Part shown: positions 98 through 25,717 of the stretch, piece by piece | Layout: each line of letters starts with the position of its first letter | How positions within the stretch are numbered: the stretch's first letter is position 1 | Assembly: GCA_001029735.1 (NCBI GenBank) | Contig: CP011213.1 | Span: forward strand, 396,613 to 460,612 | DNA: 64,000 nt | Origin: Berkelbacteria bacterium GW2011_GWE1_39_12 | GTDB lineage: Bacteria; Patescibacteriota; UBA1384; UBA12157 | Reading direction: 5' to 3' | The notes under the pieces: generated by a model | The model's database searches: none | What the model was told of the DNA's origin: nothing | The model's input: the letters and a program-made list of their open reading frames with translations, nothing else | Translations under genes and position numbers: made by a program

Positions 98-442
98 TTA
101 GCTGATTTGGATATTAACAGCAATGGCGCGATCGGAATTTAAAACACTCGATAGCATCGCGATGCCGTGTTCTGTAAAAACATATGGTAAAGTTCGGCGT
201 CCACCTCTCCCTTTTGGACTGCTTGAGGTCGCAATTTGCGACTTCAAAACTATATCTTCTTCATTTGTTAATTTGAAAGCAAAATCTTCGGGAAATCTCT
301 TCTTATTCCTTTTAATTTGTTCATTTAATCTCTTCGTCGTCACTCCATAAAGCTTCGCCAAATCAGAATCGAGCATCACCTTTTGGTCGCGAATTAAGAA
401 AATCTTTTGTTCAATTAATTCTGCTAAAACGAGTTCTTTCAT
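98..442 (-). CDS. ORF6N-domain protein (phage/plasmid antirepressor-like DNA-binding domain)
   Basis: The 114-aa ORF contains the motif DLAKLYGVTTKRLNEQIKRNKKRFPEDFAFKLT, which is characteristic of the ORF6N domain. It lies immediately downstream of a tRNA gene. Confidence 0.55.
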   Translation of the reverse strand: MKELVLAELIEQKIFLIRDQKVMLDSDLAKLYGVTTKRLNEQIKRNKKRFPEDFAFKLTNEEDIVLKSQIATSSSPKGRGGRRTLPYVFTEHGIAMLSSVLNSDRAIAVNIQIS

Positions 443-490: not shown

Positions 491-583
491 TGCGGAAGGG
501 GTGGGATTTGAACCCACGAGACCCTTGCGAGCCTACCGCTTTTCGAAAGCGGCGCAATCAACCGGGCTATGCGACCCTTCCGC
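491..583 (-). tRNA. tRNA-Ser (anticodon CGA), class II with long variable arm
   Basis: Minus-strand sequence GCGGAAGGGTCGCATAGCCCGGTTGATTGCGCCGCTTTCGAAAAGCGGTAGGCTCGCAAGGGTCTCGTGGGTTCAAATCCCACCCCTTCCGCA. It has a perfect 7-bp acceptor stem, anticodon loop TTCGAAA, a long variable arm and the T-loop GGTTCAAATCC. CCA is not encoded. Confidence 0.8.
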
Positions 584-597
584 ATTACAACAATTAT

Positions 598-816
598 TTA
601 ATCATTAAATAAATATTTAATTCTTTCTTTGCCTTTCCCTGATTTGAGAAACAATTCTTCTCGCAAAGCGTCTGTTTTATTAGTAAATGCCTCGTAATAA
701 ATGATATTCCAAGGACATCCGGATTTAGTCGAGGTTACTTTGCCTTGGTTATGCTCAGTGAACCTTTTTTTTGATATTTTCTGTACTACCCTTATAAAAC
801 TTGCCAGTCTTTTCAC
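598..816 (-). CDS. GIY-YIG nuclease family small protein (UPF0213-like), N-terminus degenerate or truncated
   Basis: The C-terminal two thirds (EHNQGK..SKSG.PWNIIYYEAF.NKTDALREE.FLKSGKG) match small GIY-YIG proteins. The N-terminal GIY/YIG strands are not recognisable. Confidence 0.45.
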   Translation of the reverse strand: MKRLASFIRVVQKISKKRFTEHNQGKVTSTKSGCPWNIIYYEAFTNKTDALREELFLKSGKGKERIKYLFND

Positions 817-844
817 TTTTTAATATATATACATAAAACATATC

Positions 845-960
845 TTAATTTCGCCAGCCCAAGGCTGGTCGTCCTCGGGACGAAAACCGGCGCAATTGGG
901 CCCGAGGCCCACCGGCCCTGGGCCGGCAACCGGGCTATGCGACCTCTCCGTAGCGAAGCG
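845..960 (-). repeat. GC-rich structured element copy 1: tRNA-Ser-like 5' segment followed by four GC triloop hairpins
   Basis: Minus-strand sequence GGAGAGGTCGCATAGCCCGGTTG, then the hairpins CCGGCCcagGGCCGG, GGGCCtcgGGCCC, CGTCCcgaGGACG and CCAGCCttgGGCTGG. GC is roughly 70% in an AT-rich context. It is homologous to positions 25081..25212 in the opposite orientation. Confidence 0.5.
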
Positions 961-1074
961 TAGGAGATGGCGCACAACGTTCTGCGTCAGCAGGTTGTTA
1001 TGCGACCTCTCCAAGGCCTGTTTGTCAAAACTATAAGACAGTTATTGGTCACATATGTAATATGCGACCTCTCC
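937..1074. repeat. Three direct copies of the 14-bp tRNA 5'-end fragment TATGCGACCTCTCC at an exact 62-bp period, separated by unique spacers
   Basis: Copies lie at 937-949, 999-1012 and 1061-1074. The reverse complement GGAGAGGTCGCATA corresponds to a tRNA acceptor 5' strand plus D-stem start. Confidence 0.6.
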
Positions 1075-1109
1075 ATCCTTCTCTTCTTTTAAGACGAGCA
1101 TAACGAAGT

Positions 1110-1565
1110 CTACTCTTTTGGCTTGATCTTAATAAATCTCATTGGCTCTTCACCTTCAGAGACAACCTCAACGCCTTCAAAATCAGTTAAGACAGTATGA
1201 ACAATTCTTCTCTCATAAGCATTCATCGGACGAAGATCTTGAGCGTATTTCGAGTTACGAACGTTTTCGGCGGTGGCCAAAGCTAATTCTTCCAATTCTT
1301 TTTCTTTATTCGCCTTGTAACCTGCTACATCAATTACAGCCGATACTCTCTCATCCATGGCTTTGTTTAACATCATTCTTATAACATATTGTAGCGATTC
1401 TAAAGTTTGACCAAATTTTCCAATCAACATGCCCGAGTCTTCGGACACAATATTGATGCGGATATTGTCTTTAACCTCAACCTCAACTTTTGCATTAGGA
1501 TCAATGAATTTTATAACTGACAAAACTAGTTCCTGCAGTTCTTTTTCAGACAATTTTTTTGGCAT
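1110..1565 (-). CDS. jag: Jag/KhpB-like RNA-binding protein (KH + R3H domains)
   Basis: Position immediately downstream of yidC. The C-terminal region has an R3H-like motif (YERRIVHTVL). Confidence 0.7.
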   Translation of the reverse strand: MPKKLSEKELQELVLSVIKFIDPNAKVEVEVKDNIRINIVSEDSGMLIGKFGQTLESLQYVIRMMLNKAMDERVSAVIDVAGYKANKEKELEELALATAENVRNSKYAQDLRPMNAYERRIVHTVLTDFEGVEVVSEGEEPMRFIKIKPKE

Positions 1566-2685: not shown

Positions 2686-2717
2686 TTTCTTTGCCTCACT
2701 AGTTTAGCATAACAAAT

Positions 2718-3038
2718 TTATTTAACGTTTTGAAAAATTTTCTTGACGGTCGAATCAATCATCGCTTCATCCGGTAATTTTTTAAAACTAAAAATAAAAT
2801 CGTAATTGGTTTTTAAAAGCATCAAATTTTCAGTAATTGCTTCCGTAGTTTTTCTTTTTAAACGAGATCTGTTAACGGATTTTGCCACCACAGCTTTAGG
2901 AATAATCACCGCAAAGCGGCTATGTTTGGCAGTGTTCGGTAAAGTTCTTACCAATAAAAAATCCTCAAAAAAACGATTGGATTTTTTGTAAACTCGATCA
3001 ATTTCTCTCTTTTTTAACCGAAAAGATCTCGCAAGCAT
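2718..3038 (-). CDS. rnpA: ribonuclease P protein component
   Basis: A 106-aa basic protein downstream of rpmH with the RnpA-like motif (RLKKRE...FAVIIPKAV.KSV.RSRLKR). Confidence 0.8.
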   Translation of the reverse strand: MLARSFRLKKREIDRVYKKSNRFFEDFLLVRTLPNTAKHSRFAVIIPKAVVAKSVNRSRLKRKTTEAITENLMLLKTNYDFIFSFKKLPDEAMIDSTVKKIFQNVK

Positions 3039-25080: not shown

Positions 25081-25212
25081 CAAGGTCGCATACGTCCGCC
25101 CAGGCTCTGTGACTTGATTGACTTCGACTATCTTGTCGGTGATGTTTTTTGCGGGCAATTTTGAGGTGCAAGAGGGCTTTTTTCGGCCCAAGGCCGACCA
25201 GCCTAGGGCTGG
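25081..25212 (+). repeat. GC-rich structured element copy 2 (inverted relative to 845..960)
   Basis: It starts AAGGTCGCATACGTCCGCCCAGG and ends TTTTCGGCCCAAGGCCGACCAGCCTAGGGCTGGC. Both termini align to copy 1. Confidence 0.5.
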
Positions 25213-25641
25213 CTAACGATGCTTTCTTTGTCTATTAGCTATCTTTAAGTGTAACAATGCCTTCTCCAGAGCTGCAGAGGCTTCCGCAACTTCTATATCA
25301 TCTTCGGCGTTTTCGAGTTTTTGCTTGGCTTTATTCTTCGCTTCTTCAGCGGCAATTTCGTCAATACGCTCGGAACGAACGGCGCTATCGGACAGCACTT
25401 TAACCACATCGTTATTAATTTCCACAAAACCACCCATTGAAGCCAGGTGAATTTCTTCCGATTCGCCCTTTTCCGCCAGTTGGCGGATTATTATTTCGCC
25501 GGGCGAAAGAATTGTAACCAGCGGTTCATGTCCGGCCAAAATGCCAATTTCCCCATTTAAAGTCGGTAACAAAACTTCGTGAGCTTTGCCCTCATAAATG
25601 GTTTCTTCTGGAGTGATTAATTTAAAGTCAAATAGTTTCAT
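25213..25641 (-). CDS. atpC: F0F1 ATP synthase subunit epsilon
   Basis: MKLFDFKLITPEETIYEG... is a typical epsilon N-terminus. The ORF track's start at 25656 lies inside a palindromic element. Confidence 0.8.
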   Translation of the reverse strand: MKLFDFKLITPEETIYEGKAHEVLLPTLNGEIGILAGHEPLVTILSPGEIIIRQLAEKGESEEIHLASMGGFVEINNDVVKVLSDSAVRSERIDEIAAEEAKNKAKQKLENAEDDIEVAEASAALEKALLHLKIANRQRKHR

Positions 25642-25651
25642 AATGTAAATT

Positions 25652-25717
25652 GTCATTCCGGACTTGATCCGGAATCTATTCTAGATCCTGAATCCTGCAA
25701 TGGCCGGTTCAGGATGA
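25652..25717. repeat. palindromic element family B (GTCATTCCGGA...TCCGGAATCTAT...TTCAGGATGAC)
   Basis: A 66-bp element in the atpD-atpC intergenic region. Confidence 0.6.

Follow-up and report, generated by a model that had tools for sequence, protein, structure and literature searches.

Layout of the jag to tRNA-Ser(CGA) interval

The interval from a jag/KhpB-like gene to a tRNA-Ser(CGA) gene in this Berkelbacteria genome (Patescibacteria/CPR) comprises 590 bp. It is part of the window, by which we mean the whole stretch of 64,000 nucleotides that was analysed. The features of the locus, together with a solitary hairpin found elsewhere in the window, are as follows.

1110..1565, minus strand: jag/KhpB-like gene (KH + R3H), the upstream boundary of the locus and its synteny anchor (rpmH-rnpA-yidD-yidC-jag)
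1013..1074, minus strand: unit A, 62 nt, a 14-mer, its complement and a 34-nt tail with TATAGT and TTGACA
950..1012, minus strand: unit B, 63 nt, member of a family termed B-type, based on fold, family matches and a covarying pair
927..949, minus strand: copy C, nt 1-23 of a displaced tRNA (GGAGAGGTCGCATAGCCCGGTTG), 5' end of the former resident allele, based on the repeat scan and comparison with locus L089
897..926, no strand assigned: HP2a (minus-strand sequence CCGGCCCAGGGCCGG + TGGGCCTCGGGCCCA), within the displaced tRNA's D loop, from the hairpin scan
884..896, minus strand: nt 24-33 of the displaced tRNA (ATTGCGCCGGTTT), repeat family D4, aligned to the intact tRNA
854..883, no strand assigned: HP2b (minus-strand sequence TCGTCCCGAGGACGA + CCAGCCTTGGGCTGG), in the anticodon loop, separating nt 33 from nt 34
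849..853, minus strand: CGAAA, nt 34-38 (anticodon CGA, A37 and A38), where the displaced tRNA resumes after HP2b
598..841, minus strand: GIY-YIG gene, single domain, about 80 aa, pseudogene, ATG at 841-839, stop at 598
492..581, minus strand: intact tRNA-Ser(CGA), start at 581, acceptor strands GGAAGGG/CCCTTCC, based on ARAGORN, Rfam RF00005 and sequence comparison
25183..25212, no strand assigned: solo HP2 (TCGGCCCAAGGCCGA + CCAGCCTAGGGCTGG), abutting the atpC stop codon, from the hairpin scan

The intact tRNA-Ser(CGA) was called at 492/493-581 on the minus strand by ARAGORN and Rfam (RF00005, 50.4 bits). Except for this tRNA, Rfam returned nothing, either for the region at E up to 10 or for the whole window at gathering thresholds. 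A promoter and terminator scan of positions 400-1200, a type of scan that is uninformative for CPR genomes, gave no promoter-like site and one weak terminator-like site. The 14-mer GGAGAGGTCGCATA, corresponding to tRNA nt 1-14, occurs in exactly three copies on the minus strand (1074-1061, 1012-999 and 949-936), and the start of the intact tRNA (581-568) matches it with 2 mismatches. At up to 2 mismatches we found 5 matches where 0.24 were expected, a number reached in none of 100 shuffles. The three tRNA 5'-fragment repeats proposed in an earlier note on this DNA are therefore real. The regularity claimed for them also stands, but the spacing is 62 and 63 nt and not exactly 62. That note had further considered that the repeats might vanish on re-assembly. 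Since the sequence of the locus is identical in three other assemblies (ERZ27254731, ANAN16/SAMN03203003 and JGI 3300025010), they are no assembly artefact.

Copy C, previously taken for an 18-nt fragment of a tRNA 5' end, is such an end but extends much further. It covers nt 1-38, the 5' half of a tRNA-Ser allele that formerly resided here, broken into nt 1-23, 24-33 and 34-38 by two copies of HP2, a 30-nt double hairpin with two 6-bp stems and 3-nt loops. What had been described as a GC-rich hairpin array indeed consists of GC hairpins, but it resolves into these two defined elements at 897-926 and 854-883. Locus L089, the closest relative, carries GGAGAGGTCGCATAGCCCGGTTGATTGCGC unbroken after unit A and lacks HP2a; copy C minus HP2a equals the start of the L089 tRNA in 30 of 30 nt. 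The L089 sequence (SRR22388067) stops at tRNA nt 30 and is hence silent on the presence of a cassette there. Many intact tRNA-Ser genes begin with GGAGAGGTCGCATAG, so that the intact counterpart sought in relatives exists, and together with L089 these genes corroborate the earlier proposal that the fragments derive from a different tRNA-Ser allele. The acceptor difference invoked for that proposal holds at two positions of GGAGAGG, although the intact strand reads GGAAGGG from 581 and not GCGGAAG. The intact tRNA differs coherently from the copy C allele on both strands of the acceptor and anticodon stems, and is thus a separate full-length allele. Judging from the sequence, it is most likely the allele brought in by the cassette described below. 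The window contains neither a CCTCTCC acceptor strand nor a second T-loop motif, that is, no 3' partner for copy C.

The GIY-YIG gene had been regarded as truncated. We found it to be full length, from ATG 841 to the stop at 598, with a +1 frameshift: one extra A in the A8 run at 765-772 splits it into two frames, the C-terminal one being a 72-aa ORF (598-816). With A7 in place of A8 the protein aligns over its full length with homologues of 80-85 aa (65-74% identity, query coverage 98-100%). Residues 1-72 match PF01541 with 49.4 bits against a cut-off of 22.6, and among solved structures UPF0213 BH0048 and EF2693 come closest (E about 5e-4). No DNA-binding domain was found; the whole protein is a catalytic domain of about 80 aa (PF01541 only), and a search of NCBIfam gave no family above cut-off. 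Among 29 family members Y3/Y5, Y16, G18, R27, H31, N32 and E62/E63 are invariant, and the window copy keeps these residues despite the frameshift. Because the frameshift splits it, this copy is probably inactive. The same frameshift is reproduced in the 3 other assemblies (L001-L003).

The solo HP2 at 25183 matches the HP2 copies of L045 and L052 at 100% identity; read as its reverse complement, it equals the HP2 of L037. About 90 nt from this element (25183..25212) lies AGGTCGCATA.

A GIY-YIG gene, hairpins and tRNA genes across Patescibacteria

The GIY-YIG family is large: grouping at 50% identity gives 4,886 clusters whose E is 1e-10 or lower. We analysed 80 unbiased Patescibacteria loci from GTDB species genomes. 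A tRNA gene, mostly tRNA-Ser, follows the GIY-YIG gene on the same strand after 2-125 nt in 77 of them, and the three exceptions are contig ends. Over all copies the partners were Ser-GCT (26), Ser-TGA (22), Ser-CGA (17), Ser-GGA (8), Tyr (4) and Cys, Asp and Glu (1 each). A canonical HP2 was located at most 120 nt upstream of the gene in 81/85 GIY copies, with variant hairpins in the other 4. Conversely, 238 kb contained 81 perfect HP2s, of which 73 precede a GIY ATG by no more than 110 nt and the remaining 8 lie in tRNA-loop contexts. The GIY-YIG gene and the GC hairpins are the core of an element and no incidental neighbours. HP2 is free of stop codons, which inflates GIY-YIG ORF calls by 20-40 codons; the longer predicted forms of the protein are such upstream extensions through HP2. 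The stems of HP2 covary, with double changes in 9 of 12 pairs and a score of 0.447 compared to 0.141 for shuffles and at most 0.088 for slid controls, all in hairpin sets that were chosen for being hairpins. Literature searches combining GIY-YIG with tRNA, Patescibacteria/CPR or hairpin returned no description of an association with tRNA genes.

The position of HP2 is specific. In those copies whose flank could be matched, HP2 occupies an unpaired position within a copy of the 5' part of the following tRNA, namely at nt 8/9, in the D loop, in the anticodon loop or in the T loop. Junctions were found at tRNA nt 12-14 (43 copies), 21-23 (5), 34-36 (9) and 58 (1), with a further class at 8/9. The 6 nt behind HP2 continue the tRNA exactly in 33/57 copies and with one mismatch in another 15, and the upstream tRNA fragments end 5-13 nt past HP2. 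In 31 of 76 loci the direct repeat reaches at least 10 nt into the tRNA leader. Three loci (L019, L049 and L074) have HP2 on both sides of the GIY gene, and in the same loci the split resident tRNA has kept both halves. The nearest GIY relative is associated with the same isoacceptor in only 36 of 80 cases, which points to switching of tRNA partners. A recent local duplication was considered for the GIY copies within L020, L023 and L029 and was rejected, as these copies are just 41-60% identical. Viral contigs contained only 3 weak GIY relatives (32-43% identity), and the cassette is therefore not typically phage-borne.

A comparison of filled and empty sites was possible for L004 and L088, two loci whose Jag proteins are 90.7% identical. 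The empty locus L088 consists of jag, 7 nt and an intact tRNA-Ser(CGA). In L004 the first 33 nt of the L088-type tRNA are unchanged up to the junction with a HP2, which is homologous to HP2b and lies at the same tRNA position. Behind it the tRNA sequence resumes as in the window, here with CGAAAAC, and then come the GIY gene (locus positions 2079-2318), a different tRNA-Ser(CGA) and a T-arm remnant with another HP2. Close relatives thus show a presence/absence polymorphism with a precise junction at the same site. The earlier note had suggested looking for such a polymorphism and had proposed repeated integration and excision at the tRNA gene; insertion events at the gene are borne out by this pair of loci, while the integrase type of event is not. 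We conclude that copy C, HP2a, HP2b, the GIY-YIG gene and the tRNA in the window are a decaying copy of a phylum-wide cassette.

Units A and B upstream of copy C

Neither the GIY gene nor HP2 is present in units A and B. The sequences between the repeats had been called unique; however, the A and B spacers each hold a complement of the 14-mer, and the units are consequently hairpins. In unit A nt 5-14 of the 14-mer pair with ATATGTGACC over 10 bp with one G-T. Unit B has the order 14-mer, ACAAC and a small hairpin (CTGC-TGAC-GCAG), followed by GAAC, a stretch imperfectly complementary to the 14-mer (GTTGTGCGCCATCTCC) and a tail of 13 nt, and its predicted fold has -27.4 kcal/mol (z -4.85). Unit A is kept in L089 with 91.9% identity, compared to 72.6% for the neighbouring jag coding DNA, whereas unit B is missing there. 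Units of this kind are also missing in L088 and L090. Unit A is the older one and common to the sister lineage; unit B is lineage-specific and belongs to a conserved family. The period of 62-63 nt is read as module size and nothing more.

A unit of the 14-mer plus 44-58 nt abuts an intact tRNA-Ser in about 24 metagenome loci, and two metagenome loci carry tandem 14-mer units of 63 and 62 nt. L091, L097 and L099 had been candidates for such loci and were discarded, since they hold an unrelated 57-58-nt tandem repeat in which the 14-mer occurs by chance. In loci chosen for carrying the exact 14-mer twice, the B-type family stands upstream of Ser-GGA, -TGA, -GCT and -CGA and of Arg-GCG genes, with arms that match the downstream tRNA. 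In L110 the B-type core precedes tRNA-Arg(GCG) and both arms match tRNA-Arg; once, in L114, the core has non-tRNA arms. A regex scan for B-type cores, a small sample, recovered the known set together with one tRNA-Arg case and one case with non-tRNA arms. Most B-type loci are without a GIY gene. The inner hairpin, a variable part that MAFFT aligned poorly, shows compensatory changes between the orthologous loci L102 and L111, and pair 16-45 covaries (GC 7, CG 4, AU 1). On the tRNA strand a U-G pair is conserved among the members, three of which have cUUCGg tetraloops. The earlier note had also asked whether the repeats form one structured RNA; the compensatory changes speak for this in part as far as unit B is concerned, but not for the array as a whole.

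We read A and B as products of a similar insertion that would have duplicated the 5' end of the tRNA, and possibly they have been retained as structured, useful leader elements. The conservation of unit A and the G-U pairs and cUUCGg loops seen in the family of unit B fit a functional RNA better than a scar.

Origin of the locus and relation to known systems

Taken together, we think it rather likely that the locus represents three stacked tRNA 5'-end duplications from small hairpin-bearing elements, and that the cassette acts like a homing-type selfish element. For the target and activity of the nuclease, the repair route and the capture of a promoter, we infer the following course. The nuclease would cut a naive tRNA gene in a loop, probably while the gene is single-stranded and folded, and repair would copy HP2, the GIY-YIG gene and the tRNA out of a cassette-bearing donor. 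The resident 5' part would persist upstream as a dead remnant reaching as far as the break, the tRNA behind the cassette would keep the cell viable, and the captured tRNA promoter would drive transcription of the nuclease gene. In the window, a GGAGAGG-type tRNA-Ser(CGA) would have received the cassette at nt 33/34, and the GGAAGGG allele would have arrived with it. Later the nuclease would have been lost by the frameshift, and a second HP2 would have been gained in the D loop. Several points count against this course. Site-specific cutting of a tRNA gene would be unusual for a protein of 80 aa that has no DNA-binding domain. Classical homing avoids leaving a target, but here the intact downstream tRNA stays a potential one. 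The tRNA nucleotides between HP2 and the GIY ATG, as well as the extension of the repeat into the leader, are unexplained by a simple insertion at the break.

A different view of units A and B, and maybe of the pseudo-tRNA/HP2 leader too, is that they are functional cis-acting RNA structures in the tRNA-Ser precursor. A mimic of the tRNA 5' end would pair with an anti strand that could otherwise pair with the real 5' end; this pairing would control folding of the tRNA, its processing by RNase P or its level, and the repeats would be held by selection. The high conservation of unit A relative to jag DNA, the strong fold of unit B, the compensatory changes in the inner hairpin and at pair 16-45, the conserved U-G pair and the cUUCGg tetraloops all argue for it. 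So does the conservation of the B-type in sequence and structure before Ser and Arg-GCG genes, with arms always matching the tRNA and mostly at loci that lack a GIY gene. However, the distribution is patchy, as seen from L089, L088 and L090, and no Rfam family, terminator or U-tract was found. A core with arms re-tailored to tRNA-Arg, or with non-tRNA arms as in L114, is more readily understood if the target supplies the arms upon insertion. Furthermore, copy C, HP2 and the GIY-YIG gene are left unexplained by regulation in cis, and we regard it as an unlikely account of the locus.

That islands or prophages with an integrase repeatedly integrated and excised site-specifically, leaving att-like tRNA fragments, is very unlikely and largely refuted. 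tRNA genes are classical integration sites, the fragments derive from another tRNA allele, and two independent contigs (L001 and L002) end shortly downstream of the tRNA, with contig ends at 432 and 216 of the window, although such contig breaks prove nothing by themselves. Attachment-site duplications of integrases normally involve the 3' part of a tRNA, but the repeats here are the 5' end (nt 1-14/38) upstream of the gene, and between them lie 48-49 nt of hairpin and no island remnants. A flanking integrase had been suggested as a check, yet nothing recombinase-like was found among the called genes and Pfam lists of related loci. The downstream ORF6N gene, cited before in support of mobile-element traffic, is syntenic in relatives with and without the cassette and hence says nothing on such traffic. 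Across the phylum, such fragments are accompanied by a GIY-YIG gene and HP2 and not by an integrase. A split or intron-containing tRNA, with copy C as 5' exon and the HP2/GIY-YIG region removed at the RNA level as in a group I intron with a homing endonuclease or in split tRNAs of the Nanoarchaeum type, would account for HP2 lying exactly in tRNA loops with tRNA sequence resuming behind it. GIY-YIG genes are typical passengers of group I introns, and L019, L049 and L074 have a matching 3' part downstream behind another HP2. We nevertheless find this scarcely plausible: neither a group I intron nor another Rfam family is present in the window, the noncoding DNA is far too short for a ribozyme core, the window lacks a 3' half for copy C, and the upstream fragments end shortly past HP2. 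As an intact tRNA with the same anticodon always follows, a spliced product is unnecessary. A CRISPR-like or other spacer-acquiring mini-array of tRNA-derived repeats, as had been offered before, could also be suggested by the three exact 14-nt copies, their period of 62-63 nt and the dissimilarity of the sequences between them. This idea has practically no chance of being correct and is in practice refuted, because the repeat is just 14 nt long (at least about 23 nt for CRISPR), each supposed spacer holds the complement of its own repeat, the spacer of unit A is conserved in the sister lineage (92%) and that of unit B belongs to a conserved structured family. A blastn-short search of the window and the related loci for a source of the unit A spacer gave only chance matches of 9-13 nt among the matches listed, no cas-like genes were seen near the locus, and copy C simply runs on as tRNA.

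With insertion of hairpin-bearing elements as the preferred reading, we tentatively propose, at somewhat less than even confidence, that Patescibacteria harbour undescribed tRNA-gene parasites consisting of a bare GIY-YIG protein and the 30-nt HP2, and a second undescribed family of mimic-anti hairpins before tRNA-Ser and tRNA-Arg. If true, the parasites would enter via single-stranded loops, mainly of the class II tRNAs Ser and Tyr, and the cell would survive by the duplicated 5' part or by a replacement tRNA that the element supplies. The arms of the mimic-anti hairpins would be copied from the target tRNA, and the structure of folded tRNA-gene DNA would guide mobility without integrase, transposase or DNA-binding domain. 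A very common small CPR gene, annotated as 'hypothetical GIY-YIG', would gain a biological context as part of a minimal selfish cassette on tRNA genes, which would reshuffle tRNA-Ser alleles between lineages and leave pseudo-tRNA fragments and GC hairpins in AT-rich, streamlined genomes. The mimic-anti units raise the possibility of tRNA precursor leaders able to pair with the 5' end of their own tRNA. The cassette family could be a source of compact structure- or site-specific nucleases. For annotation, tRNA finders can be misled by pseudo-tRNA pieces, as in L074, and such repeats may break assemblies; L089 ends inside the tRNA.

Among known systems, integrase islands and prophages resemble the cassette in that a tRNA is the target, an intact tRNA is regenerated and a partial copy marks the other junction. 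In contrast, the cassette has no integrase, duplicates the 5' and not the 3' part, measures about 0.3-0.4 kb and has loop junctions marked by HP2. In the mtDNA of Allomyces, studied by Paquin, Laforest and Lang, a mobile endonuclease ORF reportedly supplies a replacement segment while the old part becomes a pseudogene, and short GC-rich double hairpins are said to act as mobile insertions in that AT-rich genome. Since this is a eukaryotic organelle with a protein-coding target, the resemblance is a lead only.

The free-standing homing endonuclease SegB, encoded within the tRNA gene cluster of phage T4, is a GIY-YIG enzyme whose site includes the T-psi-C stem-loop motif of tRNAs, and SegB homing moves the nuclease gene with neighbouring tRNA genes and replaces the tRNA region of the recipient (PMC2330249). 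The GIY-YIG gene among tRNA genes and the replaced tRNA region are reminiscent of L004 compared with L088. SegB, however, has two domains, comes from a phage and acts on duplex DNA during co-infection, without a hairpin or pseudo-tRNA fragment, whereas the protein of the cassette consists of the catalytic domain alone and is found in cellular CPR genomes.

Ssn proteins are single-domain GIY-YIG nucleases that cut ssDNA beside hairpin repeats flanking their own genes; they bind the NTS/SRM hairpin as ssDNA, and the cut falls a few nt to its 5' side (Chenal et al., 2025; PMC11893778). The SRM motif (HGTCWY..YYVSBRH..WNVSBRG..RNCYNB) had 1 match in 43 kb of GIY flanks and none in the window, and the HP2 consensus does not fit the hairpin part of the motif. 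HP2 also differs in being a double hairpin that is associated with tRNA loops and with duplication of the 5' end of a tRNA, and the Ssn paper mentions neither tRNA nor Patescibacteria (PMC11893778). The solved structures nearest to the cassette protein are UPF0213, and Ssn was compared by its published description. On the other hand, both proteins are minimal single-domain GIY-YIG proteins (80-94 aa, with about 90-100 aa expected of Ssn members), and in both cases short GC-rich hairpin repeats border the gene in an arrangement like that of an IS, as L019, L049 and L074 show with an HP2 on either side. Solo copies of the hairpin are found elsewhere in the genome too, as at 25183 of the window. 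The cut position of Ssn matches the position of the tRNA/HP2 junction. If the reading of the cassette given above holds, the idea behind Ssn, a tiny nuclease with its own hairpin repeat, would extend to the loops of folded tRNA-gene DNA.

The tRNA-Ser locus

The window starts in the origin region of the Candidatus Berkelbacteria (Patescibacteria/CPR) genome, with the gene order dnaA ... rpmH-rnpA-yidD-yidC-jag. ARAGORN and Rfam recovered only one tRNA in the 64 kb, a tRNA-Ser(CGA), and the window reaches only 491 nt beyond it on the downstream side. The 14-mer GGAGAGGTCGCATA, which corresponds to nt 1-14 of a tRNA-Ser of the GGAGAGG type, is found exactly three times. The intact tRNA starts with GGAAGGGTCGCATA and differs from it at two positions. 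Allowing up to two mismatches, we obtained 5 matches to the 14-mer compared to 0.24 expected by chance. The region is 100% identical in three other assemblies, each from different samples. We conclude that the three-repeat tRNA locus is real and non-trivial. Its features are listed below; HP2 denotes a 30-nt GC-rich double hairpin.

Features of the tRNA-Ser locus
1074-1061, 1012-999 and 949-936, minus strand: the three occurrences of the 14-mer
1074-1013, tRNA strand: unit A, consisting of the 14-mer, three bases, ATATGTGACC and a 34-nt tail
1012-950, tRNA strand: unit B, consisting of the 14-mer, ACAAC, a 4-bp hairpin, GAAC and GTTGTGCGCCATCTCC
949-841, tRNA strand: copy C, consisting of tRNA nt 1-23, HP2a, nt 24-33, HP2b, CGAAA, seven bases and the GIY-YIG ATG
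926-897: HP2a, a 30-nt double hairpin between tRNA nt 23 and 24
883-854: HP2b, a second double hairpin after tRNA nt 33 and before CGAAA
841 (ATG) to 598, minus strand: GIY-YIG gene, frame shifted by one extra A in the run 772-765
581-492, minus strand: intact tRNA-Ser(CGA)

An earlier note had described three repeats with a 62-bp period; the three copies are exact, but their start-to-start spacing is 62 and 63 nt. Copy C, read there as a short tRNA fragment, does carry the tRNA 5' end but extends to the anticodon loop, the CGAAA behind HP2b being the anticodon plus A37 and A38. The GIY-YIG gene, noted there as truncated, is complete but frameshifted: with A7 in the run, it encodes a product (…STENIKKRFTEHN…) that agrees with the family consensus at each residue. 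In this genome the frameshift has probably inactivated the nuclease. Pfam recognises a GIY-YIG domain (49.4 bits) and the protein comprises nothing else; UPF0213 proteins are the closest solved structures. Sixteen bases past the stop codon of the gene begins the intact tRNA-Ser, whose acceptor strand is GGAAGGG instead of the GCGGAAG given previously. The GIY-YIG gene and the GC hairpin array, which had been listed as side features, are the centre of the locus.

Downstream of the tRNA lies an ORF6N-domain gene (98-442, minus strand, 118.8 bits), formerly taken as support for mobile-element traffic. It occupies the same relative position in three related loci (L004, L088 and L090) and is a conserved neighbour that gives no sign of a recent mobile element. 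Three independent contigs end in or just past the tRNA locus (L001 at window position ~432, L002 at ~216 and L089 at tRNA nt 30), hinting toward strain variation or a repeat-induced assembly break nearby.

A hairpin and GIY-YIG cassette ahead of tRNA genes

We aligned 29 homologues of the GIY-YIG protein and searched GTDB with one genome for each species. The 80 loci that this search yielded were all Patescibacteria-type MAGs. In 77 of them a tRNA follows the GIY-YIG gene on the same strand after 2-125 nt, and the other three are contig ends in which tRNA 5' sequence is still visible. Partner tRNAs are Ser with all four anticodons, some Tyr, and single Cys, Asp and Glu. A canonical HP2 was present at most 120 nt upstream in 81 of 85 GIY-YIG gene copies, the remaining four having variant hairpins. 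Conversely, 73 of the 81 perfect HP2s in the 238 kb scanned lie within 110 nt upstream of a GIY-YIG start codon, and every one of the other eight is in a tRNA-loop context. With 4,886 clusters (50% identity; E of 1e-10 or better), the family is a large one, and viral contigs essentially lack it.

HP2 is a pair of adjoining hairpins whose stems are 6 bp and whose loops are 3 nt long (consensus YCNGCC-CRA-GGCNGR + YCNGCC-TNG-GGCNGR). The stems show compensatory changes, with double changes in 9 of 12 pairs, and the covariation score was 0.447 compared to 0.141 for shuffled and at most 0.088 for slid controls, in a set that was selected for hairpin formation and for which nearly all loci qualified. 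Pairing is almost purely Watson-Crick. Since the reverse complement of an HP2 is another HP2, the structure can form on either DNA strand.

HP2 sits at unpaired positions of a copy of the tRNA 5' part. In 59 of 78 copies the ten bases ahead of it correspond to the tRNA downstream (41 exactly). Past it, the tRNA sequence resumes over six bases, without mismatch in 33 of 57 copies and with a single mismatch in another 15. The junction falls after tRNA nt 12-14 (43 copies), 21-23 (5), 34-36 (9) or 58 (1), with a further class at 8/9. From HP2 to the GIY-YIG start codon the median distance is 17 nt. In 31 of 76 loci the direct repeat takes in 10 nt or more of the tRNA leader, and the duplicated leader is often the whole spacer from the GIY-YIG stop codon to the tRNA.

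L020 carries three tandem GIY-YIG genes (1178-2163) with a mutual identity of only 42-44%, one of them preceded by AT-rich double hairpins (GAAATTGCATAGCAATTTC, AAATTTGCATAGCAAATTT) replacing the GC-rich type. L023 has two cassettes, at Ser-TGA and Ser-GCT, that are 60% identical, and in L029 a second GIY-YIG copy (2700-3006) lies directly ahead of tRNA-Glu. GIY-YIG ORF calls are frequently stretched by 20-40 codons upstream, to 102-119 aa compared to ~80 (L004 2001-2321, L005 2001-2309 and many family entries), because the GC-rich HP2/pseudo-tRNA region is free of stop codons; the added N-terminal stretch is probably spurious. In L074 (2612-2732), the second tRNA-Ser(GCT) called by ARAGORN is in fact a resident tRNA interrupted in its D loop (nt 4-12, HP2, nt 13 to end), part of the hairpin having been taken as acceptor. 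Hence, HP2 can mislead tRNA finders.

A third HP2 in the window stands alone (TCGGCCCAAGGCCGACCAGCCTAGGGCTGG, 25183-25212), immediately against the stop codon of atpC (25213..25656, minus strand). L045 and L052 have an HP2 of exactly this sequence, and L037 has one that equals its reverse complement. On the plus strand, roughly 90 nt from the hairpin, AGGTCGCATA (25086-25095) is a 10-nt match to the 14-mer, and behind it comes a degenerate half-hairpin (CGTCCGCCCAGG). The place may be a second cassette site in decay, one with neither tRNA nor GIY-YIG gene.

Probable allele replacement and the units upstream of the tRNA

L004 and L088 are contigs from one sample with Jag proteins 90.7% identical. 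L088 has jag, 7 nt and an intact tRNA-Ser(CGA) that starts GGTGGGGTGGCAGAGTGGCCGAATGCGCCGGTTT and continues CGAAAACCGG. L004 keeps exactly the first 33 nt of this tRNA, followed by HP2, CGAAAAC, the GIY-YIG gene and a quite different tRNA-Ser(CGA). Beyond the second tRNA lies a T-arm/acceptor remnant (…CCTCTCCG) with HP2 in the T loop, and homology to L088 resumes only afterwards. The layout indicates that the resident 3' half was replaced, and the remnant that a piece of an earlier host's tRNA travelled with the cassette. In L049, L019 and L074 the resident 3' part is still found downstream, behind a second HP2, and L090 is another empty site. In only 36 of 80 cases do a GIY-YIG gene and its nearest relative share the isoacceptor at which they sit. 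The filled L004 and the empty L088 bear out the proposed insertion history at the tRNA and provide the presence/absence polymorphism between relatives that had been suggested for comparison.

In L004 (2440-2497) and L010 (1530-1585), the T arm and acceptor 3' strand of another tRNA lie just downstream of the intact one, with HP2 exactly in the T loop (GGTTC-HP2-GAATC). The acceptor strand of the L004 remnant, CCTCTCC, could pair with the GGAGAGG of the window.

The closest relative of the window locus, L089 (Jag 75.8% identical), has jag, unit A and then GGAGAGGTCGCATAGCCCGGTTGATTGCGC, where the contig ends. Consequently, unit A is older than the split of the two lineages, and unit B and HP2a originated within the lineage of the window. 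Copy C represents the 5' half of the former resident, a tRNA-Ser(CGA) of the GGAGAGG type. The present tRNA-Ser differs from it on both strands of the acceptor stem (GGAAGGG/CCCTTCC) and of the anticodon stem (CCGCT/AGCGG). These coherent two-stem differences mark a separate allele, confirming the earlier suspicion of a foreign one. The simplest account is that the cassette brought the present allele with it, as in L004. L004 shares both the nt 33/34 junction and the HP2b sequence; the GIY-YIG proteins of the two loci are 75% and the Jag proteins 67% identical.

Units A and B each combine a copy of the tRNA 5' end with a nearby complement. In unit A, nt 5-14 of the 14-mer pair with ATATGTGACC over 10 bp including one G-T, and the tail includes TATAGT and TTGACA. 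Unit A is 91.9% identical between window and L089, compared to 72.6% for the adjoining jag coding DNA. In unit B, GTTGTGCGCCATCTCC is an imperfect complement of the 14-mer plus AC, and the fold reaches -27.4 kcal/mol (z = -4.85; 0 of 200 shuffles as good). A metagenome scan for two 14-mers 40-60 nt apart returned 28 loci. In ~24 of these, an intact tRNA-Ser (GGA, TGA, GCT or CGA) is immediately preceded by a unit made of the 14-mer and a further 44-58 nt, and all but one lack the GIY-YIG gene. In L094 and L098 two units, 63 and 62 nt long, stand in tandem, with the period seen in the window. The unit B design (14-mer, A(C/G)AAC, small variable hairpin, GAAC, 14-mer complement, ~10-nt tail) recurs in ~13 loci. 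Its inner hairpin compensates between orthologous loci (CTGT…ACAG in L102, CTGC…GCAG in L111), pair 16-45 covaries (GC 7, CG 4, AU 1), three members have cUUCGg loops, and the tRNA strand keeps a conserved U-G pair. In L110 (1200-1252), a B-type core precedes tRNA-Arg(GCG), GCACCCATA + ACAACC-TGGC-TTT-GCCA-GAAC + GCTATGGGTAC, with arms that are tRNA-Arg nt 1-9 and their complement. Taken together, these findings show that random scars do not account for A and B. Either the units are modules that built their arms from the target when they inserted and were retained afterwards or, as the main rival explanation, they are functional leader structures.

Related structures were seen elsewhere. The tandem units of L094 (4798-4922) and L098 (9913-10037) precede tRNA-Ser(CGA) and are of a type unlike those of the window (tRNA nt 1-24, a small GC hairpin and CAACCGGG, which is complementary to the D-loop portion). 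Partial 5' duplicates with hairpins also lie upstream of tRNA-Arg genes in L072, L073, L104 and L033. In L114 (~position 100, minus strand), a B-type core (AACC-TCATC-AGAAG-ATGA-GAAC) adjoins the 3' end of an opposite-strand tRNA, and its 10-nt arms (CTAATTTCAG/CTGAAATTAG) are unrelated to any tRNA 5' end; the core may thus be a small palindromic element of a more general kind. In L091, L097 and L099, a tandem repeat of 54-58 nt (…CGACCTCGGAGAGGTCGCATATTGGTAGAACCGCATTGG…), with the 14-mer inside a palindrome and no tRNA nearby, appears unrelated to the tRNA-Ser units.

A candidate mechanism and known systems

Integration and excision by an integrase, as well as a spacer-acquiring mini-array, had been offered as readings of the repeats. 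Neither found support: the integrase-island, CRISPR and also group I intron readings each fail their own defining features. In open-access papers and bioRxiv preprints we found no description of the GIY-YIG/tRNA-Ser/hairpin link in CPR bacteria or of units such as A and B.

Ssn nucleases are single-domain GIY-YIG proteins whose genes are flanked by hairpin repeats; the enzymes bind these repeats and cleave ssDNA a few nt to the 5' side of the hairpin (PMC11893778). T4 SegB is a GIY-YIG homing enzyme that recognises the tRNA T-psi-C motif and takes neighbouring tRNA genes along (PMC2330249). Beyond the observed cassette anatomy, tRNA association, loop positions, covariation and filled and empty alleles, we infer a four-step mechanism by analogy with these enzymes. 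The CPR enzyme would cleave a loop of folded, single-stranded tRNA-gene DNA, and donor-templated repair would copy HP2, the GIY-YIG gene and a tRNA. The 5' part of the resident tRNA would be left behind, and the captured tRNA promoter would drive transcription of the cassette. Use of this promoter would account for the fixed orientation of the cassette ahead of the tRNA. While the published SRM motif does not match HP2, the cassette would work much like the Ssn/SRM pair. Similarly, although its protein has no DNA-binding domain, it would behave like a free-standing homing endonuclease gene.
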